Notes under the pieces: generated by a model
Told to the model about the DNA's origin: nothing
Seen by the model: only the letters and a program-made list of their open reading frames with translations
Database searches by the model: none
Translations under genes and position numbers: made by a program
Assembly: GCA_001785355.1 (NCBI GenBank)
Contig: MFTQ01000021.1
Location: forward strand, 4,033 to 68,032
Origin: Candidatus Nomurabacteria bacterium RIFCSPHIGHO2_01_FULL_41_71
GTDB lineage: Bacteria > Patescibacteriota > Minisyncoccia > Phycocordibacterales > UBA9973
Direction: 5' to 3'
DNA length: 64,000 nt
Shown: one piece after another, positions 5,764-34,070 of the stretch
Layout of the letters: each line of letters begins with the position of its first letter
Numbering within the stretch: the stretch's first letter is position 1

Positions 5764-6438
5764 ATGTTACGCAAGGATCCATTTATCACCGGCGAATATT
5801 ATCATCTTTATAATCGTGGTATAGATAAAAGAGTAATATTCAAATCAAAAAAAGACTACGAGCGATTTATCATGCTTTTATATATTGCGAATACACAAAC
5901 AGAATCTTTTCGTTTGGATAATTTAATAAATCAACAGCATAAAACATTTAACGAAATTCTGGTATTAGATAGGGGTGAATTAATCATTTCTATTGGTGCA
6001 TGGTCTCTCATGACAAATCATTTTCATTTAATAGTAAGACAAGAAATCGATGGAGGAATTACTAAATTTATGAGAAAATTGGGGACAGGATACTCTATGT
6101 TTTTTAATATTAAATACCAAAGAACAGGTGCCTTGTTTGGCGGATTATTCAAATCAAAATTAATTGGAGTTGATGATAATTATATGCGACAATTATTCGG
6201 ATATATTCATATTAATCCCTTGGAAATAAAATTTCCTGATTGGCAAAAGCAAATCAAAAAACCTTTTAGTGAGATGAAAAAATTTCTTAGATTATATAAG
6301 TATTCCAGTTATCCCGATTATATTGAAGAGGATAGAGTAGAAAAAAATATATTAAATGCCAAAAATTTTCCTAAGTATTTTAATAATGCAAAATCCTTTA
6401 AAGATTTTATGGATGAATATTTCATCGAAAATAATTAA
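5764..6438 (+). CDS. IS200-like/REP-associated tyrosine transposase (RAYT) paralog 1
   Basis: GEYYHLYNRG N-terminus, HxH motif NHFHLIV, Y1-transposase fold hallmarks; flanked by cognate REP hairpins. Confidence 0.75.
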   Translation: MLRKDPFITGEYYHLYNRGIDKRVIFKSKKDYERFIMLLYIANTQTESFRLDNLINQQHKTFNEILVLDRGELIISIGAWSLMTNHFHLIVRQEIDGGITKFMRKLGTGYSMFFNIKYQRTGALFGGLFKSKLIGVDDNYMRQLFGYIHINPLEIKFPDWQKQIKKPFSEMKKFLRLYKYSSYPDYIEEDRVEKNILNAKNFPKYFNNAKSFKDFMDEYFIENN

Positions 6439-6443
6439 GCAAA

Positions 6444-6472
6444 AATTAAGCAAGGACGGTCCTTGCTTAATT
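6444..6472. repeat. REP palindrome (same family as 5709-5737) downstream of RAYT-1
   Basis: aattaagcaaggacggtccttgcttaatt. Confidence 0.85.
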
Positions 6473-6540
6473 TAAAGAGGGGCTTTAAAATTGCGATTTT
6501 TATGGTATCATTTAGTTAAGTCCGCCATGCGGGCTGTTTT

Positions 6541-8301
6541 ATGTTTAATTTAAAGGATTCAATTTCATATATATGGCCAATAATCTCAAAATATAAAAGG
6601 TCTTTTTTCTTTATTTATATTTTGTTTATTTCTAGACCACTTTTATCTAATACTATTGTTCCAATTTTCTACAAAAAAATTATAGATTTAGTTGTTACTC
6701 CAGGTGTTGATAAGTCGTTATTAACAAATTCACTTTTTAAATATGTTGCCATGATTGCTGTATCTTTTGCTATGGCTAATATTTTTATGCGCTGGGGGCA
6801 ATTTCTCGTTACTAGATTTCAATCTAGTGTCATGAAAAATTTAATGGATTTAACTTTTTCTAAACTACAAAATCACTCGTACACATTTTTTGCCGACAGT
6901 TTTTCTGGATCATTGGTAAATAAATCAAAAAAGTTTGTTAAATCGTTTGAAACCGTACACGATATCATTCTTGATAATTTTTGGCAACCATTTATTGCCT
7001 TTTTGTCTATTTTTATAGTGTTTTTTATACAATCTTATCCTATTGCACTGGTCTTTTTTGTAGTTTATCTTTTGTATTTCTTAATTATAATTTCTATGTC
7101 TAAAAAAACAATACAAGCGTATATAGAAAAAGCACAGGCCGATTCAAAAGTTACAGGATACATAGCTGATGCCTTGGTAAATATCTTAGCCACTAAAGCA
7201 TCTTCTGCATCTGCAAGAGAAATTGAAAGTTTTAAGATTGTAACAGCCGAAGAAGATTTTTTACGTTTTAGGGCATGGAATATGGCCAATAAACAACAAA
7301 TTGTGCAATCAATTCTTATTGTTTTTGTTCAAGTTTTCTGTGTATTCTTGGCTGTAGAACTTTGGATTTCTGGTAAAATAACAGCCGGTATGTTTTTACT
7401 AATTCAAAGTTATTCTATAACTCTTGGTAATTATTTTTGGGATTTAGGTAGATCAATGATTAGATTTACTGAAGCAACATCAGATATGAAAGAAATGATT
7501 GATATATTTAAAAAAGTTCCAGATGTACTTGATCCAGAAAAACCAGAGATTTTAAAGATAAAAGATGGAAACTTAGAGTTAAAAGATGTTTCCTTTAATT
7601 ATCTTAATGGTACTGAGGTATTAAATAATTTTTCACTTAAAATTAATAAAGGAGAAAAAGTTGGATTGGTGGGTCATTCCGGTTCTGGAAAATCAACTAT
7701 TACTAAACTCTTAATGCGTTTTGTTGATATATCTGAAGGGGAAATTTTAATTGACGGACAAAACATCAAAAATATAACCCAAGATGATTTAAGAAAAAAT
7801 ATCTCATATATTTCCCAGGAACCTATTTTGTTTCATAGAAGTATAAGAGACAATATTGCTTATAGTAAACCAGAAGCAAATGAAGAACAAATTATAGAGT
7901 CCTCTAAGGCGGCTCACGCAGACGAGTTTATTTCAAGATTAATTATGGGGTACAATACTTTTGTTGGTGAAAGAGGAGTTAAACTCTCCGGCGGAGAGAG
8001 ACAGAGGGTGGCTATAGCGAGAGCAATGTTAAAAGATGCACCAATTCTTATTCTTGATGAAGCGACAAGTTCGTTAGATAGTATTAGCGAGTCTTATATT
8101 CAGGACGCCTTTAATGAGTTAATGAAAGGCAAGACAGCAATAGTGATAGCTCATAGATTGTCCACCGTGCAAAAAATGGACAGGATTATAGTGCTTGATA
8201 AGGGGAAGATAGTGGAAGAAGGAACCCATAAAGAGCTTTTGACCAGAAACGGCTTTTATGCGGATTTATGGAATCATCAAACGGGCGGATTTCTGGAATA
8301 A
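6541..8301 (+). CDS. ABC exporter, fused permease + ATP-binding domain (MsbA-like)
   Basis: 6-TM N-terminal half; Walker A GHSGSGKST, signature LSGGERQRVAIARA, Walker B ILILDEATS. Confidence 0.8.
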   Translation: MFNLKDSISYIWPIISKYKRSFFFIYILFISRPLLSNTIVPIFYKKIIDLVVTPGVDKSLLTNSLFKYVAMIAVSFAMANIFMRWGQFLVTRFQSSVMKNLMDLTFSKLQNHSYTFFADSFSGSLVNKSKKFVKSFETVHDIILDNFWQPFIAFLSIFIVFFIQSYPIALVFFVVYLLYFLIIISMSKKTIQAYIEKAQADSKVTGYIADALVNILATKASSASAREIESFKIVTAEEDFLRFRAWNMANKQQIVQSILIVFVQVFCVFLAVELWISGKITAGMFLLIQSYSITLGNYFWDLGRSMIRFTEATSDMKEMIDIFKKVPDVLDPEKPEILKIKDGNLELKDVSFNYLNGTEVLNNFSLKINKGEKVGLVGHSGSGKSTITKLLMRFVDISEGEILIDGQNIKNITQDDLRKNISYISQEPILFHRSIRDNIAYSKPEANEEQIIESSKAAHADEFISRLIMGYNTFVGERGVKLSGGERQRVAIARAMLKDAPILILDEATSSLDSISESYIQDAFNELMKGKTAIVIAHRLSTVQKMDRIIVLDKGKIVEEGTHKELLTRNGFYADLWNHQTGGFLE

Positions 8302-8305: not shown

Positions 8306-10165
8306 ATGACAGACTTAAAATACATTCGAAATTTTAGTATCATTGCGCATATAGACCACGGCAAGTCTACCTTAGCAGATCGGATGTTGGAAATCACCCA
8401 TACTATTGAAGCGCGAAAAATGCGCGATCAAATACTTGACTCTATGGAACTTGAGCGCGAGCGGGGAATCACCATCAAGATGCAACCTGTTCGCATGGAA
8501 TATACAAACTTAGTACTCGGAGTACTAAGACTTAGTACTCCGAGTACTAAGACTAAATATATCTTAAATCTGATAGATACCCCGGGGCATATTGATTTTT
8601 CTTACGAGGTTTCCAGAGCGCTCAAGGCCGTGGAAGGTTCTATTTTATTGGTGGATTGCACCCAAGGAGTGCAGGCTCAGACTCTTACTACCCTTACCAT
8701 GGCCAGGGAAGGCGGACTTCGTATTATTCCGGTACTTTCTAAGATTGATTCTCCGCTTGCTCGAATAGAGGAAGTGAAAGAAGAAGTTAAACAGCTTTTA
8801 GGTTGTGGTGATGAGGAAGTGCTTTTGGTTTCTGGTAAGACCGGAGAAGGAGTGGAAAATCTGCTTCGTGAAGTAATAAAGCGTGTGCCGACACCTCGAG
8901 AAGATTATTCAGGAGACAATGTTTTACGCGCTCTTGTTTTCGATTTTAAGTATTCTAATCACAAAGGGGTAATAGTATTTGTGCGTATTCTGGATGGGGA
9001 AGTGAAGAAAGGAGATAACCTTCTCTTTTTGGTATCGGGAGAAAAATTTTCTTCTCTTGAAGTCGGAGTATTTACTCCGGAAGAAGTTTCTGCTGAATCA
9101 CTTTCATCCGGAGAAGTGGGATATATAGTAACTGGTATCAAGAGGCCGGGTATTGCTTCTGTCGGAGATACGATTACCATGTCCAAGAATCCTCTGCCCA
9201 CTCTTCCGGGATACATGAAGGCTATGCCGGTAGTATGGGCTTCCGTTTTTCCTGAAGATGCGGATGATTTCATAGAGTTAAAATTATCCTTAGGTAAGCT
9301 GAAGCTGTCTGATTCCGCTTTTTCTTATGAAGAAGAATCAAGCGGTTCACTCGGCCGGGGTTTCCGATGTGGATTTCTCGGGATGCTTCATTTAGAGATA
9401 ATTACCGAGAGGCTAAAACGTGAATTTGGACTAGAGCTTGTTATTACTACCCCCTCCATCACTTATGAAGTGGTAAAAAAGTCCTTTATAGGACAAGCAG
9501 GCAAAAGGGAGAAAATTTATTCCCCATACTTTTTCCCGGATGATGGCAGTGTTGAATCCGTATATGAACCATGGGTAAAAGCGCAAATAATCAGCCCCGC
9601 CGGATATTTGGGCGGTATTATGCAGCTTTTGTTCGAGCATGAAGCGGAAGTGGGCGAGACGCATAATTTTGGAGATAACAGATCGTCTATCTTGGTGGAA
9701 ATGCCGCTTCGGGAATTAATGCGCAATTTTTTCGACGAATTAAAAAGTATTTCCTCCGGTTATGCATCTATTTCTTATAAGCTTGGAGAGATGCGGAAGG
9801 CGGATGTGACCAGACTGGATATTCTGGTGGCTGACGAAGTGGTACCGGCATTTTCCAGGGTTGTGTCGAAAAAAAGAGTGGAAGAGGAAGCGGAGAAGGC
9901 AGTGGAGAAATTATATGGCCTTCTTCCTCGACAGATGTTTACTCTGAAGATTCAGGGAAGGGCTCTGGGGCGAATTATTTCTTCCCGCACTATTTCCGGT
10001 ATGAAGAAGGATGTAACCGCGCACATGTATGGAGGCGATATCACTCGTAAGATGAAACTTAGAGAAAAGCAAAAAAAAGGCAAAAAGAAAATGAAAGAAC
10101 GTGGGCGAGTAAATATTCCCCAAGATGTGTTTCTTAAAATGATGCGGTCGGGCAGAATTAACTAA
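8306..10165 (+). CDS. lepA: Elongation factor 4 (LepA)
   Basis: NFSIIAHIDHGKSTLADR G1 motif, DTPGHIDF, LepA C-terminal domain. Start moved to MTDLKYIRNF. Confidence 0.9.
   Translation: MTDLKYIRNFSIIAHIDHGKSTLADRMLEITHTIEARKMRDQILDSMELERERGITIKMQPVRMEYTNLVLGVLRLSTPSTKTKYILNLIDTPGHIDFSYEVSRALKAVEGSILLVDCTQGVQAQTLTTLTMAREGGLRIIPVLSKIDSPLARIEEVKEEVKQLLGCGDEEVLLVSGKTGEGVENLLREVIKRVPTPREDYSGDNVLRALVFDFKYSNHKGVIVFVRILDGEVKKGDNLLFLVSGEKFSSLEVGVFTPEEVSAESLSSGEVGYIVTGIKRPGIASVGDTITMSKNPLPTLPGYMKAMPVVWASVFPEDADDFIELKLSLGKLKLSDSAFSYEEESSGSLGRGFRCGFLGMLHLEIITERLKREFGLELVITTPSITYEVVKKSFIGQAGKREKIYSPYFFPDDGSVESVYEPWVKAQIISPAGYLGGIMQLLFEHEAEVGETHNFGDNRSSILVEMPLRELMRNFFDELKSISSGYASISYKLGEMRKADVTRLDILVADEVVPAFSRVVSKKRVEEEAEKAVEKLYGLLPRQMFTLKIQGRALGRIISSRTISGMKKDVTAHMYGGDITRKMKLREKQKKGKKKMKERGRVNIPQDVFLKMMRSGRIN
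8509..8551. repeat. 43-bp palindrome (two 21-bp AGTACT-containing units that are reverse complements of each other) inserted in-frame in lepA
   Basis: cttagtactcggagtactaag-a-cttagtactccgagtactaag. Adds ~14 aa (VLGVLRLSTPSTKT) between G1 and DTPGH. Confidence 0.85.
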
Positions 10166-10313
10166 TCAAAGTATGGACGACTATTGTGGAGAGAAGATGG
10201 GGGAATATAAAAGTATCATGCTTATTATTACCAGAATGGATATGGTTGCGAAAATCCACTGAATTTTCTTTTGATGTTTTTTATTAAAAAGCATACAATG
10301 ATAATATCATATC

Positions 10314-10691
10314 ATGAGAAATTTTCAAGAGAAAAAAAAATTGAAGAAAATACTGGGATCTCCCGCTGTTCTTATTGTGTTTTTTGTCTTTCTTGTGTTT
10401 TTTGTCTGGGTGGTAATTCGCTTTTTGGGGAAACTTTTTGAAACTTCAAAAAATAGAGAAATTGCTGAAAGCCGGGTGGTTGAGTTGAGAGAAGCTAGGG
10501 AATATTTCTTCTCGCAAATTGAAAATCTAAAAACCGAAAAAGGCATTGAGGAGAATCTTCGAGAAAAATTTCCGGTGGTGAAAGACGGCGAGGGGTTGAT
10601 CGTGGTAGTGGATGAAAAAAATTCGGAAAAAACAAAAGATGAAAAAAGTCAAAACGGGTTTCTCTTTTTTATAAAAAATTGGTTCAAATAG
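10314..10691 (+). CDS. Small membrane-anchored coiled-coil protein (FtsB/DivIC-like septum formation initiator, tentative)
   Basis: Single N-terminal TM followed by coiled-coil region. Confidence 0.35.
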   Translation: MRNFQEKKKLKKILGSPAVLIVFFVFLVFFVWVVIRFLGKLFETSKNREIAESRVVELREAREYFFSQIENLKTEKGIEENLREKFPVVKDGEGLIVVVDEKNSEKTKDEKSQNGFLFFIKNWFK

Positions 10692-10701
10692 GATTTTTTT
10701 G

Positions 10702-12318
10702 TTACACTATGCAAAAGCGGGATTGGTTTAGTGGTAGAATGCGACCTTCCCAAGGTTGAGACAGGAGTTCGATTCTCCTATCCCGCACCATAAACGAACT
10801 AGACGGTTTTTTAGAAGCTGAAATGCGGGACGCGCGAAGCGCGTCCCAAGGATTCCCGCCGAATTTCCCAAACGAATTCAGAATTTTTGGCGCGCTGGCG
10901 CGCACTAATTTTTCGCCAAGAAGCAGGTTCGAGCCAAAGATTTCTTTGGCACAGACCTTTTTCGCAAAAAGGTCTGTATCCTGTGCGATTCCATTCAGGT
11001 TTTGTGCGACTTTTAGCCAATCGAGTAGCGGTTCGAGCCAATCATTGTGCTTGTGTGAAAGAGAGGTCATTTCTTCTTCGAGCGACTTCTTTTGCAAAAT
11101 CAATTTTGCTTTTTCTACACGATAGGTTTCCTTTTCAATATCTTGGTCAAGGTAAGTATTCAGAAGTCGCTCTAACTTTTGTGAAATGACAGATATTTTG
11201 GTTTCTTTCTCTTTCACACTAGCACCCACGGATTGGGCGGAGTTTTTGAAATCAGCTCGTGCCATTTTTTCCAGTTCCTCCGCCCAATCTCGTGGCAAAG
11301 AAACTTTTTGAATTAGGGATGATAACTGGCGATTAAGTTCTTCTTCCCGAATACAAGGTTGAGAACATTTTACATTTTTGTTTTTCTTTGTGCAGTGATA
11401 ATAAGTGTAATTATGCACATTTCCGTTCTTCTGCTTCTTAACCTTGTATTCGCCAGTTATCATCATTCCACATTCGGTGCAAGATAATAACCCGCAAAAT
11501 GGTTGAGGTTCATTTTTAGATTTTCGTTCGGGTTGTCCGCGGAGTTTCATCACTTTTTGCACCGAATCAAAAAGTTTCTTTGAAATGATTGGCTCGTGCT
11601 TGCCTTCGTGCAATTCTCCCGCATAGTTGAAAAGTCCAGTATAAAAAGGGTTTGAAAGAATAAAAGTCGCACGAGTTTTGTGGATTCTCTTTCCACCTCT
11701 CGAAACGATTCCGTTTTTCGCCAAAAAGTTTGAAATATCTTCCAGTCGTTGATTTCCTTTCGCGTATCTCTCAAAAGCCAAGCGGATAATTTTCGCTTTC
11801 TTCTTTTCCACTACAATCGTTTTTGTTCTACTGTCGTTGATATATCCCAAAGGAGCTTGGCTTGGAAATATTCCCATTCTCACTTTTTGGCGAAGACCTC
11901 GTTTCGTATTTTCTGAAAGAGAATCCACATAGTATTTGCTTTGGACAAATGCCATAGAGAGTGAAAATTTCCCTTGCGGAGTATTCTCAAACCAGTGCGA
12001 AGGGAATTTCATGCTCGCAAGTTTTCCGATGTCGAGTAAGTAGATAATTTGTCCGCCATCCACCGAATTACGGGCTAGACGATCGGGATGCCAACTGACG
12101 ATACCATTTGCCTCACCTCGTTCAATGCGCTTCAGCATTTGCCCGAAAATAGGTCTGCCGGGAATTTTCGCAGATTGTTTTTCGATAAATTCCTCAATGA
12201 CCTCTAAGTTTTGCTCTCGGGCAAATGCCCGCAATTCGGTGAGTTGAGCGTCAATACTCAAAACTTGTTTGTCTTCGACATCGGTGCTCTTGCGAGCATA
12301 CAAAAAGAATTTTTGCAT
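10702..12318 (-). CDS. Large serine recombinase (resolvase/invertase catalytic domain + recombinase domain + Zn-ribbon). 3' end reads antisense through IR-A and tRNA-Gly
   Basis: YARKSTDVEDKQVLSIDAQ catalytic-Ser motif at N-terminus, CTECG...CTKKNKNVKC zinc ribbon, coiled-coil. True stop uncertain because the ORF runs through a GC-rich repeat. Confidence 0.85.
   Translation of the reverse strand: MQKFFLYARKSTDVEDKQVLSIDAQLTELRAFAREQNLEVIEEFIEKQSAKIPGRPIFGQMLKRIERGEANGIVSWHPDRLARNSVDGGQIIYLLDIGKLASMKFPSHWFENTPQGKFSLSMAFVQSKYYVDSLSENTKRGLRQKVRMGIFPSQAPLGYINDSRTKTIVVEKKKAKIIRLAFERYAKGNQRLEDISNFLAKNGIVSRGGKRIHKTRATFILSNPFYTGLFNYAGELHEGKHEPIISKKLFDSVQKVMKLRGQPERKSKNEPQPFCGLLSCTECGMMITGEYKVKKQKNGNVHNYTYYHCTKKNKNVKCSQPCIREEELNRQLSSLIQKVSLPRDWAEELEKMARADFKNSAQSVGASVKEKETKISVISQKLERLLNTYLDQDIEKETYRVEKAKLILQKKSLEEEMTSLSHKHNDWLEPLLDWLKVAQNLNGIAQDTDLFAKKVCAKEIFGSNLLLGEKLVRASAPKILNSFGKFGGNPWDALRASRISASKKPSSSFMVRDRRIELLSQPWEGRILPLNQSRFCIV
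10717..10790 (+). tRNA. tRNA-Gly (anticodon CCC), CCA encoded
   Basis: Cloverleaf folded by hand: acceptor GCGGGAT/ATCCCGC, anticodon loop TTCCCAA, T-arm AGGAG-TTCGATT-CTCCT. Confidence 0.85.
10785..10878. repeat. IR-A: 94-bp perfect inverted repeat, begins in the tRNA-Gly 3' end. Partner at 12545-12638
   Basis: Reverse complement of 10785-10878 equals 12545-12638 base for base. Similarity continues imperfectly ~55 bp further (10879-10935 vs 12481-12544). Confidence 0.9.
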
Positions 12319-12336
12319 ATATTTTTCTTAAAGCGA

Positions 12337-12393
12337 AAATGGCTATTTTAGGTTGAAATCCTAACGTTAGTTAGAAAACTAAAATAGCCATTT
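12337..12393. promoter_or_regulatory. 57-bp perfectly symmetric site (15-bp arms + central 10-bp palindrome ctaacgttag with CG centre) 19 bp upstream of the recombinase start. Candidate recombination site or operator
   Basis: aaatggctattttag-gttgaaatc-ctaacgttag-ttagaaaa-ctaaaatagccattt read directly. Confidence 0.4.
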
Positions 12394-12544
12394 CCGCCAA
12401 CTAACTGATAATGGATTTCAACACAGTTAGTATAGCAAAAATTCTTTTTGTATCCAAAGCAAATACTTTGAATTTGTATCGCACGGGATTTCGAACCTGC
12501 TTCTTGGCGAAAAAACAGTGCGCATCGCCGAAGGCGGTGCTCCA

Positions 12545-12638
12545 AATTCGTTTGGGAAATTCGGCGGGAATCCTTGGGACGCGCTTCGCGCGTCCCGCAT
12601 TTCAGCTTCTAAAAAACCGTCTAGTTCGTTTATGGTGC
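12545..12638. repeat. IR-A': inverted partner of IR-A, contains inverted copy of tRNA-Gly 3' end (ggtgc)
   Basis: See IR-A. Confidence 0.9.
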
Positions 12639-12958
12639 GTTTATTCTACCAAATCAGAACCTATTTTCAAAATCTGTAATCAATGGAGTTCCCCGCGCGC
12701 TACGCGCCTCTGTGCAAAGCACAGAGCTTTCCAAAGTGGAAAGTGCGGGGAACGCAACATCTCCGAACGGCTCAAATGCCAGTAAGTGAGCCGTTCAGTA
12801 AAATGGACGAAGTTTTGCAAAAACTATTTTCTGGGGAAAGGATTTTGCAAAACTTCGGCTAGTGTTTTTGAAATTCGGCGGGCATGCAAATTCCCCGCGC
12901 GGAGGAGGGGTCTGGGGAGGAATCCGCGCGGGCTTTGGATTTTGTTGGGCGGATGGGC
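12635..12958. repeat. IR-B: 324-bp perfect inverted repeat, GC-rich. Partner at 14801-15124
   Basis: Reverse complement equals 14801-15124. Generates identical 57-aa phantom N-termini on ORFs 12786 (+) and 14973 (-). Confidence 0.9.
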
Positions 12959-13010
12959 CACCTTTACTTTTTTAATCAAAAAATCTAGTATATTTTATGG
13001 AGGTGTTGAA

Positions 13011-13397
13011 TTGAAGACTTTCCTGAAGAAAGTCCTGCGATTCAGCATCGCAGGAGGTACCGGAGTTCTCAGCGGCTACGTGGCCCTGTATTCCCTCACC
13101 GAGTTTGTTGGGTGGTGGTATATATGGTCAGCTTTTGTGGCCTTCGTTCTTAACACTGGAGTGACTTTTTACCTCCAGAGGTTCTGGACGTTCAAAAACG
13201 AGAGCCTCAAACCTTTCAGCCCGAAGCAGTTTATCATGTACTCGATGATGACAGCTAGCTTCGTTGGCTCGAATATCATACTGCTTTACCTCTTAGTGGA
13301 GTACGTACATCTCCACTACATGGTAGCGCAGGTGTGTCTGACGGCTCTTTTTTCGGTGTTTAGCTTCGTGCTGACACCTAAGATCTTCACTCGCTAG
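13011..13397 (+). CDS. GtrA-family small membrane protein (polyprenol-sugar flippase-like). TTG start after ggaggtg RBS
   Basis: ~128 aa, 4 TM, FSIAGGTGVLSGY...LNTGVTFYLQRFWTF typical of GtrA family. Upstream part of the 203-aa ORF lies in IR-B and is not credited. Confidence 0.6.
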   Translation: MKTFLKKVLRFSIAGGTGVLSGYVALYSLTEFVGWWYIWSAFVAFVLNTGVTFYLQRFWTFKNESLKPFSPKQFIMYSMMTASFVGSNIILLYLLVEYVHLHYMVAQVCLTALFSVFSFVLTPKIFTR

Positions 13398-13477
13398 AAT
13401 CGGCGTGCTCCGCAAGGACACGCCGATCGCTACTTCTAATAGAAAAAATACTCCAAAAATGATAAAATGAACTAGCT

Positions 13478-14131
13478 ATGGACTCAGAAACTCAAAGACA
13501 ACAAATTGGTAATTCCCTGAAAATAACCACAGAAATTTTTGGAAGTTGTAATGCGGATTACCGAATTCTTGGTTCTGTTTTGTTGGTTGCATATACCAAT
13601 AGAGTTTTTAGACGCATAAATGATGTTGATATTCTCCTAGATATAAAAACTAAAGATTGTGTATTCGAAAAACTAAAAAACAATGGTTTCCAATTTGAGC
13701 CAAAAAAAGTGGCTGGATTTTCTTGGATTGAAGCAAAAAAAGATCAACACTTAGGACTAACCTTTTTTCTTGTTGGTGAATTCAGAAAAGAGTATTTTAC
13801 TTGGCGTTTTATGAAATTTTTTGAACTAAGAATACGAGCTGAATATTTACATCCAACTGAATATAATTTTGAAAATGTAAAATTTATTGGCATTCCCATT
13901 TCGTCTGCTATTGCTGGGATTAGACAATCATTTCTTAATCCGAAAAGAAAAATGGATAAGCAAATTTTAGAAAATGAAGTCAATAAATCTAAAGTAAAAA
14001 TTTACAATAATATTTCTGTTTATATTTTTGGTGTAAAGCTTCCATATTTGTATGATTCATTTTCTTTTCTTTACAATATTTATGGCGGGATACGAGTTAT
14101 GTTTGGTAAAAAGTATGAGGCTTGGGATTAA
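13478..14131 (+). CDS. Pol-beta-superfamily nucleotidyltransferase-like protein
   Basis: ILGSVLLVAY...x10...DVDILLD matches the GS-x(9-13)-DxD NTase motif. No further family assignment possible by eye. Confidence 0.4.
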   Translation: MDSETQRQQIGNSLKITTEIFGSCNADYRILGSVLLVAYTNRVFRRINDVDILLDIKTKDCVFEKLKNNGFQFEPKKVAGFSWIEAKKDQHLGLTFFLVGEFRKEYFTWRFMKFFELRIRAEYLHPTEYNFENVKFIGIPISSAIAGIRQSFLNPKRKMDKQILENEVNKSKVKIYNNISVYIFGVKLPYLYDSFSFLYNIYGGIRVMFGKKYEAWD

Positions 14132-14138
14132 ATAATTT

Positions 14139-14747
14139 ATGATTACATGGATAATAATTTGGTTATTTTTTTGGACTAGCGCATTAGGTTTTACTAACTA
14201 TCTTTTTAAAAAACATGGGATTACTTATTACGAAAAATCTTGGCAACACACTATTTTTTTTATAATCCTCACACTAATCCTTTTTGTTGTTTATCAAAAT
14301 CAGTTTTTCGTATATTTTAATAATTTTTCCCTATATCATTTATTGATTATCCTGCTCTTATTTATACTGTGGCTTTCTGTCCCAACTCTTTATAAAAATG
14401 ATTATTATGCCAAAAAAGAAAGGTTTGGTTATCAGTTGCCAAAATTTTTTGAAATATTTTTCCAAGACATTTGCTTTTTAGGTGGCTTACTGACCTTTGG
14501 GATTTCTCCGACAATGTTTGGTTTGGTGTTTTTCGTCGTTCATATTCCAGCAGTATTTCTCCTTCCTAAAAAATTTGCCCTCCTGCCTATATTTGGTTCA
14601 CTTTTTGGAGGGCTAATTTTGGCCCATTTACAATCTCAAGGGATAATAGGATTTTTAGTCACATTATTTATACATTTATCATTTTGGGCTACTCTACACT
14701 ATGCTCTACAGAAAAATATTTTAGGCATTACTCCATTAAAAAGATAA
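14139..14747 (+). CDS. Polytopic membrane protein, unknown function (cargo of the IR-B cassette)
   Basis: 6-7 hydrophobic helices; very AT-rich relative to the flanking repeats. Confidence 0.4.
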   Translation: MITWIIIWLFFWTSALGFTNYLFKKHGITYYEKSWQHTIFFIILTLILFVVYQNQFFVYFNNFSLYHLLIILLLFILWLSVPTLYKNDYYAKKERFGYQLPKFFEIFFQDICFLGGLLTFGISPTMFGLVFFVVHIPAVFLLPKKFALLPIFGSLFGGLILAHLQSQGIIGFLVTLFIHLSFWATLHYALQKNILGITPLKR

Positions 14748-14800
14748 TATTTGTATCTCGGCTTTGCCGAGATTTCAATATTTGAATTTGATTTCTTAAT

Positions 14801-15124
14801 GCCCATCCGCCCAACAAAATCCAAAGCCCGCGCGGATTCCTCCCCAGACCCCTCCTCCGCGCGGGGAATTTGCATGCCCGCCGAATTTCAAAAACACTAG
14901 CCGAAGTTTTGCAAAATCCTTTCCCCAGAAAATAGTTTTTGCAAAACTTCGTCCATTTTACTGAACGGCTCACTTACTGGCATTTGAGCCGTTCGGAGAT
15001 GTTGCGTTCCCCGCACTTTCCACTTTGGAAAGCTCTGTGCTTTGCACAGAGGCGCGTAGCGCGCGGGGAACTCCATTGATTACAGATTTTGAAAATAGGT
15101 TCTGATTTGGTAGAATAAACGCAC
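14801..15124. repeat. IR-B': inverted partner of IR-B
   Basis: See IR-B. Confidence 0.9.
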
Positions 15125-15206
15125 TTTTTTTTGAATAAAGTGTGTCACACTTTCATGTTTATATTTAGTTTTGACTTTCAAAAAGCGTGGGAGTATAATA
15201 TGGAGT

Positions 15207-15440
15207 ATGCAACATGTAGAAATTTATTCGACCCCTTCTTGTCATTTTTGCCATATGGCCAAGGAATTTTTTAAAGAAAAAAACGTGCCATTTACGGATT
15301 ATGATGTGGCTTCCGATGTTTCAAAAAGGCAGGAAATGATGGAGAAGAGCGGACAGATGGGTGTTCCGGTTATCGTTATAGGAAATGAACTTGTGGTGGG
15401 CTTCAATAAGGCGCTTATCTCCAAACTGCTTGGGATTTAG
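15207..15440 (+). CDS. Glutaredoxin/NrdH-like small redox protein
   Basis: VEIYSTPSCHFCHMAKEFF...GVPVIVIG thioredoxin-fold CxxC protein. Start moved to MQHVEIY. TTGACT-17-TATAAT promoter-like hexamers at 15171-15199. Confidence 0.65.
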   Translation: MQHVEIYSTPSCHFCHMAKEFFKEKNVPFTDYDVASDVSKRQEMMEKSGQMGVPVIVIGNELVVGFNKALISKLLGI

Positions 15441-15445
15441 GCTAT

Positions 15446-15520
15446 GTCCTCGTAGTTAAACGGATATAACGACTCCGTCCTAAGGAGTAATTGTAGGTTC
15501 AATTCCTGCCGAGGACACCA
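15446..15520 (+). tRNA. tRNA-Arg (anticodon CCT), CCA encoded
   Basis: Acceptor GTCCTCG/CGAGGAC, anticodon loop GTCCTAA, T-arm GTAGG-TTCAATT-CCTGC. Confidence 0.8.
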
Positions 15521-15597
15521 CAACCAAACTTTTGCTTTTGTCAGAAGAATTTTCGCGCGCTTCACGAAGCGAAGCGTAAGGTGGGATAGAGTTAAAT

Positions 15598-15807
15598 TCA
15601 ATCCGGCGATTTTTCAAAAACAGGTTCGAGCCAAATAATATTGCCTTTTTCTAATTCGGTCATTTTCTCCTCCAACGACTTCTTGCGGGAGAGAAGCCCA
15701 GCCTTCTCTGCAAGGTACTCATCTTGCTCTATATCCTCGTCAATAGACCGGACTTGTTTGTCTTCAATATCGGTTGATTTGCGAGCGTATAAGAGGTATT
15801 TAAGCAT
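15598..15807 (-). pseudogene. Internally deleted remnant of a large serine recombinase (N-terminal 23 aa fused to ~45 aa of the C-terminal coiled-coil)
   Basis: MLKYLLYARKSTDIEDKQVRSID matches the rec-1 N-terminus. EKAGLLSRKKSLEEKMTELEKGNIIWLEP matches rec-1 EKAKLILQKKSLEEEMTSLSHKHNDWLEP. Upstream DNA (15580-15630) resembles the inner part of IR-A (caggttcgagccaaa). Confidence 0.75.
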
Positions 15808-15884
15808 CGGTGTATTATACCACCTTGCTTTAGATGTGTTAATCTAATATAATCTCATATATCTAATATAATAGATTATAAGAC

Positions 15885-16934
15885 ATGAATTACAATAAAC
15901 GAATTAAGAATATACCACAAAATCTATGGGTATTCATCAATCAAATTGATGAATTAAAAGGCCGATGGATTGGTGGAGCCGAAATAAATCCACAAGCACT
16001 TGGCCGATTAAAACGTTCCGTTTTGGTTACGTCGACTGGCGCCTCCACTCGTATTGAAGGAGCCAAACTTTCCGACGAAGATATTGAAAAAATGATGCGT
16101 GGACTTTCTATGCAAAAATTTGCCGACCGCGACAAGCAAGAAGTGCAAGGATATTATGAACTTCTTGAAAATGTATTTAACTCTTACAACAAGATACCAT
16201 TTTCAGAAAGTAGCATTCAACATCTTCATAAGGAAATTTTAAAATATGTTGAGAAAGATAAATTTCATCGCGGAGAATACAAAAAAACTGAAAACAGAGT
16301 TGAAATGGTAAATGAAGTGGGTCAATCTATAGGTATTTTATTTGATACCACACCTGCCTGGCTCACACCGAAAGAAATGCAAGAATTATTCGAATGGACT
16401 AAAAAATCTCTCTCTTTAAAAGAAATTCATCCATTAATAATTATTGGAAATTTTATTGTGGAATTTCTTAATATCCACCCATTTCAAGATGGCAATGGTA
16501 GACTTTCACGCGTTCTTACAAATTTATTAATGCTCCAAGCTGGTTACGCATACATGCCGTATGTCTCGCATGAGAAATTGATTGAAGATAATAAGGCGGA
16601 ATATTATGTAGCTCTTAGAAAAAGTCAGAAAACTTTAAAAACCGATAATCCGAATGTTGTGCCTTGGCTTGAATTCTTTTTCAATGTTCTGCTTACACAA
16701 GCAAAACAAGCAATTGAGTTGCTGTCAAAAGAAAATATTGATAAACTTCTTTCCCCCAAACAACTTTTAGTGTGGCTCCATCTTAGTAATGTTGGGGAAG
16801 CCACGCCTAGAGACATATCTTTAAAAACAAAAGTTGCTCGCCCAACCGTGTCTCAAGCACTCGATACTCTTTTGCGTCTCAAGAAAGTTGAACGTATTGG
16901 ACAAGGACGAACGACGAGGTATAGGAAAATATAA
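15885..16934 (+). CDS. Fic/DOC family protein (AMPylation-type) with C-terminal winged helix
   Basis: Canonical Fic motif HPFQDGNGRLSRVLTNLLMLQAGY. Confidence 0.85.
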   Translation: MNYNKRIKNIPQNLWVFINQIDELKGRWIGGAEINPQALGRLKRSVLVTSTGASTRIEGAKLSDEDIEKMMRGLSMQKFADRDKQEVQGYYELLENVFNSYNKIPFSESSIQHLHKEILKYVEKDKFHRGEYKKTENRVEMVNEVGQSIGILFDTTPAWLTPKEMQELFEWTKKSLSLKEIHPLIIIGNFIVEFLNIHPFQDGNGRLSRVLTNLLMLQAGYAYMPYVSHEKLIEDNKAEYYVALRKSQKTLKTDNPNVVPWLEFFFNVLLTQAKQAIELLSKENIDKLLSPKQLLVWLHLSNVGEATPRDISLKTKVARPTVSQALDTLLRLKKVERIGQGRTTRYRKI

Positions 16935-17007
16935 AATATGTATAACCACTCAGGAAAAACTGGCTCTAAGTGCTGGATTTGTATGAAATTTATGCTAATA
17001 TACCCAA

Positions 17008-17265
17008 ATGGATCCGGAATCCAAAAAGCTCTTGGAAGAGAATTTGAGGCTTTCGCAAGAGAATAATGTTATTTTGCTTAAGCTCAAGCGCTCGATGCAG
17101 GTAAGGCGTTTTGTGAGTATAATTTATTGGACACTCATTGTAGGCTCGGCAGTGGGGGCTTATTATTTCATCCAGCCCTACATAGATCAGATGGTAAACA
17201 TTTATGGCGGGGCCAAAGATGACCTCGAAAATTTCAACCAGCTTTTTCAGAATTTGAAAAATTAA
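17008..17265 (+). CDS. Small hypothetical protein with one TM segment
   Basis: ORF only. Confidence 0.3.
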   Translation: MDPESKKLLEENLRLSQENNVILLKLKRSMQVRRFVSIIYWTLIVGSAVGAYYFIQPYIDQMVNIYGGAKDDLENFNQLFQNLKN

Positions 17266-17279
17266 TAAGATAAAAGATT

Positions 17280-17355
17280 GCCTGGGTAGCTCAGTCAGTA
17301 GAGCATTCCCCTGAAGAGGGAAGGGTCGGCAGTGCGATCCTGCCCCCAGGCACCA
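17280..17355 (+). tRNA. tRNA-Phe (anticodon GAA), CCA encoded
   Basis: Acceptor GCCTGGG/CCCAGGC, anticodon stem TTCCC/GGGAA with loop CTGAAGA. Confidence 0.85.
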
Positions 17356-17364
17356 AATTTTAGT

Positions 17365-17865
17365 TTAAATAGACTTTACTCGGATGACATTTTTCTTGTC
17401 TTTGTCCACTTTCTGGAGCTTGATGGTAAGGAGTCCGTGTCTCTCCACCGCTTCTACTTCTTCAGGCTCTATTTCTTGAGGAAGAACGATGGTACGGGAA
17501 AATTTGCCCCAGTAAAGCTCTCTGACGAAATAATTATCTTCATCGACATTGCGATTTTCTCCACGCTTGCCCTGAATGGTAACCATGTCTCTCGCTATGG
17601 TAAGCTCTAGATCTTCCGGTTTTACTCCGGCCACCATGGCTTGGATTACGATATCGGATGCTGTCTGATATACATCTATAGTGAGTTCTGCTTCATCATT
17701 CTCTTCTTCAATCCAGTTGCCACCCCCTTGCCCGTTTTTCTTTTCCAGCTTGGTTACGTGCTTACTGGGAGAAACTTCTTCCGGCCCTTCTTCCAAGCGC
17801 ATTGTTCCGGTTAATTTTTCAAAAAAAGTTCTTTTTCTATTTTCTTTTTCCATAATTTTTTTCAA
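17365..17865 (-). CDS. Hsp20/alpha-crystallin small heat-shock protein
   Basis: ACD core ...GLLTIKLQK, AxxxNGVL-like region. Confidence 0.8.
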   Translation of the reverse strand: MKKIMEKENRKRTFFEKLTGTMRLEEGPEEVSPSKHVTKLEKKNGQGGGNWIEEENDEAELTIDVYQTASDIVIQAMVAGVKPEDLELTIARDMVTIQGKRGENRNVDEDNYFVRELYWGKFSRTIVLPQEIEPEEVEAVERHGLLTIKLQKVDKDKKNVIRVKSI

Positions 17866-28567: not shown

Positions 28568-28674
28568 GATTTGTGTTTTTAAAACAGATTTCTTTAGGTG
28601 AACCCAAGAGTTGGCTTTCCGAACTCATAAAAGAATCTCAAGGGATAAAATTAAGTATATCAGAATTACAAAGT

Positions 28675-29214: not shown

Positions 29215-29254
29215 TTTTCTAGTTTAGCATTAACAGAAATAAAGTCATTCTTGG

Positions 29255-29878: not shown

Positions 29879-29894
29879 AATAAAAATCTTTGAA

Positions 29895-30353: not shown

Positions 30354-30361
30354 TTGTTTAA

Positions 30362-31720: not shown

Positions 31721-31724
31721 ATAA

Positions 31725-33998: not shown

Positions 33999-34070
33999 AA
34001 ATTATTTTTCTGCTATTATCAACTCAAAATACCATAAAAAAGATAAATAATCTATAGAAAATATAGCTAT

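Follow-up and report, generated by a model that had tools for sequence, protein, structure and literature searches.

Putative large serine recombinase elements at tRNA 3′ ends in a Candidatus Nomurabacteria genome, with attP inside the recombinase gene

A 64,000-nucleotide stretch of contig MFTQ01000021.1 from Candidatus Nomurabacteria bacterium RIFCSPHIGHO2_01_FULL_41_71 (hereafter, the window) very probably carries two intact elements and one decayed element that integrate at the 3′ ends of tRNA genes by means of a large serine recombinase. In this account, which rests on sequence comparison, attP is located inside the recombinase open reading frame (ORF), the recombinase reads the T-loop of the target gene, and elements of the rec-1 family possess a second, inverted attP. 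The intact elements are element 1 (4.3 kb, at tRNA-Gly, with the recombinase gene rec-1) and element 2 (8.9 kb, at tRNA-Glu, with rec-2), and their features are summarized in Table 1. The host is an uncultured groundwater bacterium, and all of the sequences compared are metagenome assemblies.

ARAGORN predictions and ORF coordinates agreed with the claim, made in a sequence-only reading of this DNA, that both intact serine-recombinase genes end antisense in tRNA genes. The entire tRNA-Gly lies antisense within the rec-1 ORF (74 nt plus 5 further codons), and residues 513-538 of the protein are antisense tRNA-Gly. Homology to relatives stops at about residue 511-520, which corresponds to the junction. 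The rec-2 ORF shares 62 nt with tRNA-Glu, and its final 20 codons are antisense tRNA-Glu. The mechanical ORF of rec-2 starts at 35823 (35823-37583); the ATG at 35889, as called in L089, is the likely true start.

rec-1 scored above the Pfam cut-offs for Resolvase (75.5 bits), Recombinase, and Zn_ribbon_recom (35.5 bits). rec-2 was above those for Resolvase (37.7 bits) and Recombinase and below that for Zn_ribbon_recom (19.8 vs the cut-off of 25.3). In large serine recombinases, the zinc ribbon comes after the Recombinase domain and is interrupted by a coiled-coil. The YxRxS motif with the nucleophilic serine was found in the translations as YARKST (rec-1 and the remnant of the third element) and YNRKST (rec-2). 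In a PDB search, rec-1 aligned to the C-terminal domains of A118 integrase and to SPbeta integrase, and rec-2 gave zero matches. The best NCBIfam match of rec-1 was CcrB, at 126 bits against a family (equivalog) cut-off of 900, and its closest characterised relatives are A118 integrase and CcrB. The identity between rec-1 and rec-2 is only 24%, and by this comparison they represent two separate large-serine-recombinase families, with 7915 and 883 database relatives, respectively. The sequence-only reading had proposed a single family directed at different tRNA genes with a shared layout; the layout and the variety of targets held among relatives, as described below, but the single family did not. 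Neither protein sequence was present in an exact look-up of a protein collection, and the viral contigs searched contained no close relatives of rec-1.

Table 1 Features of the tRNA-associated elements in the window.
Feature	Position	Strand	Description	Basis
tRNA-Gly(CCC)	10717-10790	+	host gene, target of element 1 (attB B arm)	ARAGORN; Rfam agrees
rec-1	10702-12318	-	538 aa; CcrB/A118-like large serine recombinase	Pfam, NCBIfam, PDB
attL core CGCAC	10784-10788		tRNA positions 70-74; left boundary of element 1	junctions J1, J2, J3 vs empty site
Y arm	10784-10932		last ~50 native rec-1 codons, putative attP P′ arm; inverted repeat of 12491-12639	
rec-1 upstream region	12319-12490	-	hairpin of ~65 nt at 12333-12397 (I9)	
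Y′ arm	12491-12639	+	truncated inverted copy of the recombinase 3′ end; internal attP core at 12635-12639	
Z′ arm	12640-12958		putative attP P arm plus hairpin-rich extension; perfect inverted repeat of 14801-15119 (I1: 324 nt, 100%)	
U2 cargo	12959-14800		both orientations occur in the population	Pfam; inversion isomers L100-L109
U2 cargo gene, GtrA-family protein	about 12945-13397			Pfam
U2 cargo gene, 217-aa ORF	13478-14131			
U2 cargo gene, 202-aa membrane ORF	14139-14747			
Z arm and attR core	14801-15124		CGCAC at 15120-15124; right boundary of element 1	
tRNA-Arg(CCT)	15446-15520	+	target of the decayed third element	ARAGORN, Rfam
rec-1-family recombinase remnant	15480-15807	-	internally deleted; tail antisense into tRNA-Arg	
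attR core GTGA, far junction of element 2	28598-28601			window 28590-28605 vs empty site L091 5850-5885
Element 2	28602-37525		about 8.9 kb	comparison with empty site; Pfam
P arm of element 2	28602-28697	+	excised form would supply the native recombinase tail EPKSWLSELIKESQGIKLSISELQSLAFLAV and stop	
rec-2	35889-37583	+	large serine recombinase; 564 aa from ATG	Pfam
Core TCAC at tRNA-Glu	37522-37525		tRNA positions 71-74	
tRNA-Glu(UUC)	37522-37594	-	host gene, target of element 2	ARAGORN

Genomes without the insertion were found for both elements, as the sequence-only reading had suggested searching for, and attB and the cores were read off from them. In L081 and L085, tRNA-Gly ends in ATCCCGCAC joined to TTTTTTTTGAATAAAG with no element between them; in L081, the end of tRNA-Gly (...CCCGCAC) is followed by TTTTTTTT. 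In L091 and L094, a GH130 gene is followed by tRNA-Glu, again with no element. The flanks of these element-free alleles, which are sister contigs, were 100% identical to those of the occupied alleles, indicating that elements 1 and 2 are insertions. The cores were CGCAC for the rec-1 element and TCAC for the rec-2 element, and 3-10 nt long in 13 further elements. The earlier prediction that crossover takes place within the 3′ end of each recombinase gene was confirmed by the unoccupied alleles, and neither of the findings named in that reading as contradicting it turned up.

attL, attR, attB, and the reconstructed attP share an identical segment of 4-5 nt, which covers tRNA positions 72-74. 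This alignment places the crossover at the acceptor end, the discriminator, and the first C of CCA. The same logic of three junctions (J1, X/Y; J2, Z/Y; J3, Z/W) applied to the window and to 13 other genomes. With a crossover at positions 72-74, the element supplies the CCA end and the 3′ trailer only; accordingly, the encoded CA of the CCA in tRNA-Gly is element-derived. The tRNA body is host-encoded, and in the empty sites the tRNAs are present and the recombinases are gone. The notion that the elements carry or restore the tRNA thus applied to the CCA end and trailer but not to the tRNA body.

As the shared core lies at the tRNA end, each recombinase ORF contains attP, at a distance from the native stop of 12 codons in the rec-1 family and of about 32 in the rec-2 family. 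On integration, the ORF is joined to antisense tRNA sequence, so that the genes seem to end within tRNAs, and the compared junctions indicate that the native C-terminal tail is replaced by antisense-tRNA codons. Both forms of tail occur in the databases. Among 120 representatives of the rec-1 family, 79 tails were antisense tRNA and about 21 were of the attP form (LLYQxRTYFQN); among 120 relatives of rec-2, the corresponding numbers were about 74 and about 32 (WLSEL class).

The ORF of rec-1 relatives overlapped an antisense tRNA at 62 of the 66 assessable loci of other genomes, involving 11 tRNA types, which argues that the link is no chance event. We nevertheless weighed whether the overlap could be an accident of adjacency or annotation, or whether the tRNAs could be cargo. 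By our own estimate, an antisense tRNA fairly often remains open by chance in a given frame, with a probability of about 0.3 over 25 codons, (61/64)^25, and the position of the stop inside the tRNA differs from locus to locus, both of which are compatible with an accident. However, the recurrence of the layout, the end of the relatives' homology at the junction, and above all the empty alleles, which retain the tRNAs without the recombinases and already refute this reading, reduce its probability to practically nil.

The degraded third member that had been noticed beside tRNA-Arg was also recovered. It retains an N-terminal/coiled-coil piece of 69 aa (15598-15807, minus strand) and a frame-shifted continuation, FGSNLFLKN...VVVSSAGIEPTITP followed by a stop, that reaches 15480 inside tRNA-Arg(CCT). 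The remnant was also found in an allele without element 1.

Element 2 encodes ORFs of 179 and 207 aa, a DUF559/PvuRts1I-like nuclease, a PIF1 helicase, a DUF87 ATPase, ORFs of 142, 164, and 71 aa, and rec-2. An 18-nt direct repeat, ATAGTAGCTC[T/A]TTTTTGA (at 35007 and 37603), was considered as its att core, which would place tRNA-Glu inside the element. This candidate was rejected because the empty site L091 locates the far junction at 28598-28601 and identifies tRNA-Glu as a host gene. Elements of the rec-2 family share the tRNA layout and contain no inverted repeats.

A sequence resembling the T-loop adjoins the core in the element arms. In element 1, this T-loop mimic is GGTTCTGATTTGGTAGAATAAA, within the Z′ arm; in element 2, it is GAGTTCGGA, on the opposite strand of the P arm. 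The distance from the core to the GTTC of the Z arm exceeded that to the GTTC of the tRNA T-loop by exactly 4 nt at 23 of 28 loci and by 5 nt at 2 more; the shift of the rec-2 mimic is 5 nt. In the published model of the LI integrase, the zinc-ribbon-domain motif occupies positions 16-24 of the attP half-site, and in attB it is shifted 5 bp toward the centre (PMC3783163). In agreement with that rule, the outer motif of attP is further out than that of attB, in one arm only.

We propose that the tRNA T-arm (GGTTCGAnTC) may serve the recombinase as the outer motif in the attB half-site, the one assigned to the zinc-ribbon domain. The mimic of this motif in attP, which is shifted outward by 4 nt in the rec-1 family and by 5 nt in the rec-2 family, would then mark attP versus attB as in the A118/LI model. 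By this analogy, the zinc-ribbon domain would be the part bound to the T-arm motif. Since nearly all tRNAs have the T-loop and the N73-CCA end, close relatives could presumably retarget to many tRNAs via few changes of core bases. In the P′ arm (Y), the T-loop motif has no symmetric counterpart, and the B′ arm (W) is not conserved at all; therefore, the canonical model of a dimer on a pseudo-palindrome accounts for just one half of each site. Translation of the T-loop mimic yields the native tails LLYQVRTYF and WLSEL, whose conservation may therefore be purely a DNA-level effect. A switch of the C-terminal tail, which was considered as the main explanation, was down-weighted for this reason.

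The inverted-repeat architecture around rec-1, with a second and inverted attP, was absent from the sequence-only reading. The order of an integrated rec-1-family element is attL, recombinase, inverted intact attP, cargo, and attR, and the segment between attL and the inverted attP of element 1 contains rec-1 alone. In the loci aligned, rec-1-family elements appear always to keep this second attP between recombinase and cargo, resulting in two nested inverted repeats. At about 50 of about 55 assessable loci, the 3′ end of the recombinase gene had an inverted copy upstream of that gene, with 82-100% identity; a second repeat abutting the first at the core was seen at no fewer than 13 loci. In more than 30 elements, the ends of the inverted repeats coincided exactly with the cores. 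The Y′ arm of the window reads ...SSSFMVR/LFYQIRTYFQNL followed by a stop, running into Z′.

Such repeats might be produced by chimeric joins of integrated and circular forms during assembly, or by MDA fold-backs. The 100% identity of the window repeats and the many contig ends inside the repeat would be expected of artefacts, and one contig, L099, is clearly on a wrong or alternative branch. The range of repeat identities argues against artefacts, since imperfect arms (82-99%) with the same architecture occur in dozens of independent assemblies, including the closed chromosome CP060229 (L041). In addition, the inner part of the Y′ arm has diverged and is found nowhere else in the window, and each junction is spanned by several independent contigs. 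We therefore regard an artefactual origin as highly improbable.

Both orientations of the cargo were observed. The arrangement of the window was found in L100, L102, L103, and L109, and the inverted cargo in L101, L106, L107, and L108, with the other junction of the inverted isomer in L104 and L105 (99.9-100% identity in each case); the ratio of the isomers was about 1:1. At the same tRNA-Gly, L082 and L087 carry a diverged element with the recombinase oppositely oriented. None of the contigs compared showed the recombinase segment flipped at 100% identity. The flipped-recombinase junction gave 0 matches in a metagenome scan, as did the attL control, so the scanned collection is without the locus and the flip result is uninformative. 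Across relatives, the orientation of the recombinase segment was skewed about 4:1 toward the tRNA-fused form, which counts against a free flip-flop, as this would not yield such a skew. Recombinase cassettes between two convergent tRNAs were present in L032 and L041.

An excised circle, as we picture it, would carry two inverted attP-containing repeats in a form like the yeast 2-micron plasmid. L099 was considered as a 5.5-kb free circle, and this was withdrawn, as the contig can be seen to take an alternative branch of the graph; it is indecisive for a free circle because each circle junction also occurs in one integrated isomer. The cargo may flip by attP × attP recombination in the circular stage, or by RecA acting on the repeats. 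Recombination between two attP sites is on record for the A118 and CcrAB enzymes.

The contribution of host RecA deserves particular consideration. If RecA recombination and gene conversion produced the inversions and the perfect repeats, as in plastid inverted repeats, the recombinase would only integrate and excise. The Z arms, at 324 nt and 100% identity, are long enough, and the even isomer ratio is as expected. The identity of the Y arms peaks at the core and decays inward (I2, 95 nt at 100%; I3, 33 nt at 94%; unrelated beyond), resembling a conversion tract. On the other hand, this explanation accounts neither for the origin of the inverted attP nor for the coincidence of the outer repeat boundaries with the crossover core in every element, and the nearest characterised enzymes are on record as recombining attP with attP. 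We consider a RecA origin a serious possibility, at somewhat below even probability.

It is unlikely, in our judgement, that the recombinase is chiefly a DNA invertase operating a phase-variation switch for the cargo or for itself, with the tRNA link being secondary. The inverted repeats stopping exactly at the cores, the coexisting cargo orientations, and the natural occurrence of the recombinase in both orientations are in line with such a role, as is the cargo, which often consists of surface or restriction-modification genes, the typical phase-variable loci. However, presence/absence polymorphism at identical flanks denotes insertion or excision, and the rec-2 family has the tRNA layout without inverted repeats. 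The Z arms are identical, so each end of a flipped cargo meets the same sequence, and no promoter-in/promoter-out change is evident. Furthermore, Hin/Gin-type invertases are small serine recombinases with a C-terminal helix-turn-helix and inverted sites of ~26 bp, whereas the present enzymes are integrase-type large serine recombinases (538-564 aa) with att-type junctions at tRNA ends.

Within the preferred account of tRNA-3′-end integration, the role of the spare attP allows a bolder proposal. The rec-1-family elements could be self-contained tRNA-docking elements in which DNA rearrangement sets the state of the enzyme, through toggling tails, 2-micron-like flips, or tRNA-to-tRNA recombination; we rate this as speculative and rather improbable. 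With the inverted attP, the recombinase may toggle between the native C-terminus (attP form) and the tRNA-antisense one (attL form), or the circle may flip like 2-micron. If so, toggling or flipping would govern all three reactions (integration, excision, and inversion), with no need for a directionality factor. If the enzyme reads the universal T-arm and N73-CCA and leaves the other attB half unconstrained, further tRNA genes could become partners of the internal attP, and such recombination would drive tRNA-to-tRNA chromosome inversions in Patescibacteria.

Judged by published descriptions, the closest precedent appears to be the ssrA-specific genomic islands of Dehalococcoides with the recombinase DsiB (McMurdie et al. 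2011, PMC3146451). As with rec-1 and rec-2, the CcrB-like large serine recombinase of these islands (~540 aa) is encoded on the reverse strand beside a t(m)RNA 3′ end, with attL embedded in its gene, and the islands are likewise small, cargo-carrying, and non-conjugative. Their integration module holds a pseudo-tRNA (PMC3146451). The Dehalococcoides target is the tmRNA gene (ssrA) only, compared with the 11 tRNA types here, and the crossover was inferred to fall within the T-loop, at a direct repeat of 20 bp, compared with positions 72-74 and a core of 3-5 nt here. The companion small serine recombinase DsiA and the six-gene module of Dehalococcoides are absent from the present elements, and an inverted attP or inverted repeats are not described for the islands (PMC3146451).

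The A118/LI, SPbeta, Bxb1, and phiC31 integrases appear to share the domain set, and they share the short att cores and the outer attP motif 4-5 bp further out; the att sites of large serine recombinases have just a few bases in common, around a 2-bp crossover. Unlike in these phage-type integrases, here the recombinase ORF contains attP, the B′ arm is unconserved, and the P and P′ arms are not pseudo-palindromic. Phage-type large serine integrases are not known for targeting tRNA genes, and a survey of integrative elements from 2020 stated that the use of t(m)RNA genes by serine integrases was unreported and needed proof (PMC7192596).

SCCmec, too, has its integration site in the 3′ end of a conserved gene, and its cargo cassettes are small; unlike rec-1, it employs two recombinases (ccrA/ccrB), targets rlmH rather than a tRNA, and has no internal inverted site. 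The archaeal integrases of the SSV1 type and mycobacteriophage BPs have attP in the coding sequence of the element, and integration alters the protein. Those systems are tyrosine recombinases, and the SSV1 int gene is wholly split, whereas only the final 12-32 codons are exchanged here. The likeness to 2-micron (Flp/FRT) can be read as an architectural analogy and not as membership: the circular permutation of the rec-1 family would similarly have two long inverted repeats with an internal crossover site, two unique segments, and coexisting isomers, but Flp is a tyrosine recombinase and 2-micron replicates and partitions autonomously, in contrast to a serine recombinase and tRNA integration here.

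Tycheposons of Prochlorococcus are small cargo elements at tRNA genes, with a large serine recombinase in 27 of 937 (Hackl et al., bioRxiv 2020.12.28.424599). Most use tyrosine recombinases and many have replication genes; the parts of that preprint consulted describe neither the layout with attP in the ORF nor an inverted attP. In the present elements, the cargo is variable, including restriction-modification systems, arsenic-type permeases, and surface proteins. Replication genes were absent from the 13 cargo regions inspected, and no candidate was seen in the cargo for the recombination directionality factor by which large serine integrases reverse their otherwise unidirectional attP × attB reaction. 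Given these cargoes, the elements may be a main route of accessory-gene exchange in reduced genomes.

In the literature on Patescibacteria/CPR, of which our coverage is incomplete and proves no absence, we found nothing specific to these elements; the rec-1 family is huge and apparently undescribed. Nor did we find in the literature a description of an inverted spare attP with coexisting isomers for serine-recombinase elements. A family with thousands of members here targets tRNAs, with empty sites, attL, attR, and attP readable directly from the DNA. The apparent rule consists of a T-loop in attB, a mimic 4-5 bp further out in attP, and a 3-nt core tracking the discriminator base. It would represent a natural experiment on the discrimination of attP and attB, and could guide the retargeting of integrases to tRNA genes, which are present in every genome.

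An E-value search of window positions 10000-18000 against Rfam returned tRNAs and chance-level matches only, and the hairpin-rich Z arms matched no described RNA family. Hairpins resembling that at 12333-12397 were found in L082, L098, and L099. Contigs end inside the repeat, and therefore many Patescibacteria assemblies break beside tRNA genes.

Seven tRNA genes were predicted in the window by ARAGORN, and rec-1 and rec-2 were both identified as large serine recombinases by Pfam. The sequence-only reading had proposed that both genes end antisense inside tRNA genes, and its coordinates and description were correct: rec-1 spans tRNA-Gly, and rec-2 runs into tRNA-Glu. The rec-2 start codon is likely the ATG at 35889, giving 564 aa, as called in a sister contig. 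The degraded third member that had been placed beside tRNA-Arg was confirmed as a recombinase remnant, whose frame-shifted continuation runs antisense into tRNA-Arg. A gene for a Fic-domain protein with a C-terminal winged-helix domain directly adjoins this remnant and is also present in the allele lacking element 1, the insertion carrying rec-1; it may be surviving cargo of a dead tRNA-Arg element.

Table. Features of the two elements and their surroundings (window coordinates).
Feature	Position	Strand	Remarks
tRNA-Gly(CCC)	10717-10790	+	ARAGORN
tRNA-Arg(CCT)	15446-15520	+	ARAGORN
tRNA-Glu(UUC)	37522-37594	-	ARAGORN
rec-1 ORF	10702-12318	-	538 aa; antisense strand holds entire tRNA-Gly
rec-2 ORF	end at 37583	+	overlaps 62 nt of tRNA-Glu
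Recombinase remnant	15598-15807	-	69 aa; rec-1-like N-terminus joined to coiled-coil region
Element 1	10789-15124		4.3 kb; core CGCAC; empty-site comparison
Element 2	28602-37525		8.9 kb; core TCAC (tRNA strand); empty-site comparison
Y arms	10784-10932 and 12491-12639		inverted; 95 nt perfect, then 94%
Z arms	12635-12958 and 14801-15124		inverted; 324 nt, perfect
attP-form rec-1 ending	12491-12680		truncated inverted copy
attP-form rec-2 ending	28602-28697
TTTCCGAAC(T) copies	37353-37372, 37435-37448, 28615-28634
Cloverleaf-like junction	12682-12758 and 15001-15077	+ and -	second is mirror copy
G-loop hairpin	12895-12940		mirror in 14801-15124
Hairpin upstream of rec-1	12333-12397		~65 nt; 22-nt arms, 91% complementary
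Fic-domain gene	15885-16934	+
214-aa ORF	40836-41480	-	between ftsZ and ftsA
ABC-transporter gene	6541-8301

Contigs encoding exactly the same flanking host proteins as the window were searched for empty sites, which were found for both elements. In L081 and L085, which lack element 1, the glutaredoxin gene, tRNA-Arg and the remnant come immediately after LepA, a DivIC-like ORF and tRNA-Gly. This site, ...TTCGATTCTCCTATCCCGCAC joined to TTTTTTTTGAATAAAG, had been predicted from three window junctions prior to its discovery, and it aligned with the window at 100% on both sides with an overlap of 5 nt. In L091 and L094, the GH130 gene is followed directly by tRNA-Glu, and element 2 is absent. 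The attB of element 2 reads ...TTTAGGTGA joined to CCCTGCGGGG; in the window, ...TTTAGGTGA continues into ACCCAAGAG at the left junction (28590-28610) and ...CTTATGTGA into CCCTGCGGGG at the right junction (37515-37535). Each core spans the final bases of the acceptor stem together with the discriminator A and the first C of CCA, and alignment of the alleles places the insertion point at N72-C74 of the tRNA genes. The crossover falls inside the recombinase ORF, as had been claimed for the 3' end of each gene. The suggestion that the elements carry or restore the tRNA held only in part, since the empty-site comparison indicates that the tRNAs are host genes and that the elements replace only the sequence 3' of C74. 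Element 1 supplies the encoded CCA, which the empty allele lacks.

The ORFs run into tRNA genes because the crossover lies inside the recombinase ORF, so that the protein end is exchanged on integration. The predicted rec-1 protein continues from ...SSSFMVR into DRRIELLSQPWEGRILPLNQSRFCIV and a stop in the integrated form and into LFYQIRTYFQNL and a stop in the excised (attP) form; for rec-2, ...KKSLLC continues into DPAGSRTPVNGLKTRCPNH or EPKSWLSELIKESQGIKLSISELQSLAFLAV, respectively, each with a stop. Both attP-form endings are encoded in the window, and database relatives with either predicted tail class are numerous. Among 120 representatives of the rec-1 family, 79 carry antisense-T-loop peptides (GFEP, GIEPT, RIEL and others) and about 21 carry xLLYQ[VI]RTYFQN; the corresponding rec-2 family tails are CDPTGNRTP...CPNR (about 74/120) and DPTxWLSELL...SLDELR (about 32/120). 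The stop position within or past the tRNA differs between loci, so the tRNA-encoded tail is a by-product and not a designed peptide.

Database searches returned 7915 relatives of rec-1 (E < 1e-20) and 883 of rec-2. The closest rec-1 relatives are 70-93% identical, and those with a named source are mostly labelled Parcubacteria or Patescibacteria. We scanned the loci of rec-1 relatives, taking one genome per species; 80 loci were returned, most of them titled Patescibacteria or simply 'bacterium', and 66 were assessable. The recombinase ORF overlapped an antisense tRNA in 62 of the 66, with Leu (21), Val (11), Gly (6), Arg (6), Tyr (4), Ile (4), Glu (3), Lys (2), Ser (2), Asn (2) and Trp (1) as targets. 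The layout shared across many tRNAs is thus borne out within the rec-1 family, but rec-1 and rec-2 are only 24% identical, which does not fit the single recombinase family of the sequence-only reading; its finding is real and its interpretation essentially right. The core varies with the target and is usually CAC(CA), with TGCCA at tRNA-Trp, GAGCCA at tRNA-Asn, CCGCCA at tRNA-Ser and CTACCA at one tRNA-Glu. Three-way comparison of attL, internal attP and attR in 13 further genomes narrowed the obligatory identity to N72-N73-C74.

On the non-recombinase side of attP, 30 nt were conserved in all rec-1-family elements whatever tRNA was occupied: AAAATAGGTTC[G/T][G/A]A[T/C]TTGGTA.AATA.A, followed by CAC. 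This stretch holds a mimic of the T-loop. Its GTTC is displaced away from the shared core, relative to the GTTC of the real T-loop, by exactly 4 nt at 23 of the 28 loci that could be scored and by 5 nt at two more. In rec-2, the P arm ...ATGAGTTCGGAAAGCCAACTCTTGGGT and tRNA-Glu GGGGTTCGACTCCCCGCAGGG, each followed by TCAC, show a 5-nt shift, and the consensus protein tails of the rec-2 and rec-1 families likewise yield offsets of 5 and 4 nt, respectively. The A118/LI integrase model assigns the motif bound by the zinc-ribbon domain to attP half-site positions 16-24 and sets it 5 bp closer to the centre in attB (PMC3783163). A crossover at 72-74 would place T-loop G53-A58 at about positions 21-16 of the B arm (the tRNA side), with the mimic 4 nt farther out. 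We infer that the universal T-arm serves these enzymes as the outer motif of attB, presumably through recognition by the zinc-ribbon domain, which would explain near-identical recombinases on many different tRNAs. Integration would be an attP x attB reaction by the encoded recombinase, with the crossover dinucleotide within positions 72-74. Only half of each att site fits the canonical picture: the motif is not mirrored in the P' arm (recombinase 3' end), and the B' arm, beyond the tRNA, is unconstrained, with no conservation at all in the three-way comparison. Element 2 contains three copies of the motif TTTCCGAAC(T), the opposite-strand form of the mimic, which encodes (F/L)SEL: one lies in the P arm and two lie inside rec-2, 85 and 170 nt before the crossover. 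The extra copies could be accessory binding sites or merely a repeated peptide motif.

Two nested inverted repeats, Y (the rec-1 3'-end arm) and Z (the other att arm), frame rec-1 in the window, and the Z arm abuts the inverted Y copy with a 5-nt overlap equal to the core. The tRNA-Y junction corresponds to attL, the junction of Z with the far flank to attR, and the Z-Y junction on the other strand to an intact, inverted attP. The arrangement recurs across the rec-1 family. The Y repeat was found in about 50 of about 55 assessable loci (63-208 nt, 82-100% identity), always ending 3-6 nt inside the tRNA, and the Z repeat in at least 13 loci (100-380 nt), enclosing 1.6-5.2 kb of cargo. No flanking inverted repeats were found around rec-2 in the window. 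The outer repeat boundaries fall exactly on the core in every element, which argues that site-specific events define them. Assemblies break beside tRNA genes because many contigs stop within the upstream repeat arm. Imperfectly matching arms, support for each junction from several independent contigs, and the presence of the layout in a closed chromosome (L041, CP060229) exclude an assembly artefact. The circular intermediate would carry two attP sites; circularly permuted, the element would consist of a recombinase segment and a cargo segment set apart by two ~480-nt inverted repeats, with the crossover site in the middle of each. The yeast 2-micron plasmid has the same layout; here the recombinase is of the serine type.

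Cargo was present in both orientations among contigs from the same aquifer sample series that are 99.9-100% identical to the window. Four contigs (L100, L102, L103 and L109) match the window, with the 202-aa-ORF end of the cargo adjoining the junction of Z with the far flank. In L101, L106, L107 and L108 this flank leads via Z to the GtrA end, and in L104 and L105 the 202-aa end leads via Z, core and inverted Y to the rec-1 promoter side; together these contigs show cargo inversion isomers. At the same tRNA-Gly, L082 (six similar places) and L087 hold a 76-84% diverged relative whose recombinase is co-directional with the tRNA and whose truncated 3' fragment adjoins it; L098 shows the same flipped state at tRNA-Leu. 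The population therefore comprises the empty allele, element 1 in two cargo isomers, and another element whose recombinase is in the flipped state. The flipped recombinase segment of element 1 itself was not found, and two scans of the metagenome collection did not return even attL. The segments may flip by intramolecular attP x attP recombination, a reaction that the A118/LI integrase performs efficiently and that has been reported for CcrAB; of the characterised enzymes, these two are closest to rec-1. RecA acting on the 324-nt perfect repeats could flip them as well. The tRNA-fused form is in 4:1 excess among rec-1-family tails, which argues against free flip-flop of the recombinase segment.

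Other arrangements of the same parts were observed. In L032 (7748-9575), L041 (6420-9579), L011 and L012, recombinase cassettes are enclosed by two convergent tRNA genes (Val/Leu, Tyr/Leu) whose 3' ends face them, the expected product of internal attP x a second tRNA gene and a hint of tRNA-to-tRNA chromosomal inversions. In L074, a Woesebacteria contig, a 200-nt repeat (7458-7657 and 11514-11713, 99.5%) that is direct and not inverted flanks the recombinase cassette and tRNA-Leu. In L098 (9998-10474), the attP-form recombinase end is followed by only ~30 nt of P arm and then by a second, truncated inverted recombinase gene (402 nt, 86% identical), which is evidence that elements have accreted and decayed at a single site.

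On its own, a serine recombinase gene whose end lies antisense in a t(m)RNA gene is a known arrangement. By published description, the closest precedent is the Dehalococcoides ssrA islands, whose 540-aa CcrB-like serine recombinase is encoded on the reverse strand beside the tmRNA gene, with attL embedded in the recombinase gene (PMC3146451). Those islands differ in their tmRNA target, 20-bp repeat, T-loop crossover, partner recombinase and conserved module, and no inverted attP is described for them (PMC3146451); in parallel with the cloverleaf-like junction of the Z arms here, they carry a pseudo-tRNA. In a 2020 survey, 14 of 297 serine-integrase elements occupied t(m)RNA genes, a use that the survey described as unreported until then (PMC7192596), and a few Tycheposons carry large serine recombinases (bioRxiv 2020.12.28.424599). 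In a literature search of incomplete coverage, neither the Patescibacteria families nor the T-loop mimic nor the double-attP layout was found described. Three points go beyond the routine: the scale of the family in Patescibacteria, the 72-74 crossover with a T-loop mimic whose placement follows the spacing rule for attP and attB, and a conserved spare attP in inverted orientation, alongside inversion isomers that coexist.

The rec-1-family cargo is small and variable, with GtrA-like and unknown membrane proteins, a complete restriction-modification system, a large type IIG-like enzyme, ArsR with a permease, an AAA ATPase pair and peptidase S51. It held no replication, transfer or obvious directionality-factor genes, and viral contigs contained no close rec-1 relatives. 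Elements of the rec-2 family look unlike this: element 2 encodes a PIF1 helicase, a DUF87 ATPase and a PvuRts1I-like nuclease. An attP-form rec-2 relative lies on a 26.7-kb contig that also encodes a relaxase/replication protein, a primase, ArdC and a TrwB-like ATPase and is thus plasmid- or ICE-like.

Across elements, the Z arms share only the first ~38 nt, and the remainder is a mosaic of GC-rich hairpin modules. The cloverleaf-like four-way junction (~77 nt, 50-120 nt past the crossover), also present in L004, L015, L022, L026, L028 and L062, consists of an outer stem and three hairpins with UACG/GAA/UGAA-type loops. Across five sequences, pairing holds in 94% of cells, and in 10 of the 26 pairs both partners vary. 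Its covariance model matched both Z arms in six elements and one arm in a seventh, and it had no Rfam match; it would fall in the 3' UTR of the attP-form recombinase mRNA. A recurrent hairpin with the G-rich loop motif GGGG(T/G)NTGGGG(A/G), for example ccgcgcggaggaggggtctggggaggaatccgcgcgg, was also found in the Z arms of L015, L026, L028, L034, L055 and L077. The hairpin directly upstream of the rec-1 start codon has apparently compensatory variants upstream of relatives in L082, L098 and L099, and may be an operator or 5'-UTR structure controlling the recombinase.

Elsewhere in the window, the 214-aa ORF, whose counterparts in sister contigs have a weak Pfam match to Y1_Tnp (IS200/IS605-type, RAYT-like), is oddly placed for such a gene. 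Local G+C falls to 0.28-0.31 at 6001-8000 and 58001-59000, against about 0.40-0.45 elsewhere, and the first dip coincides with the ABC-transporter gene.
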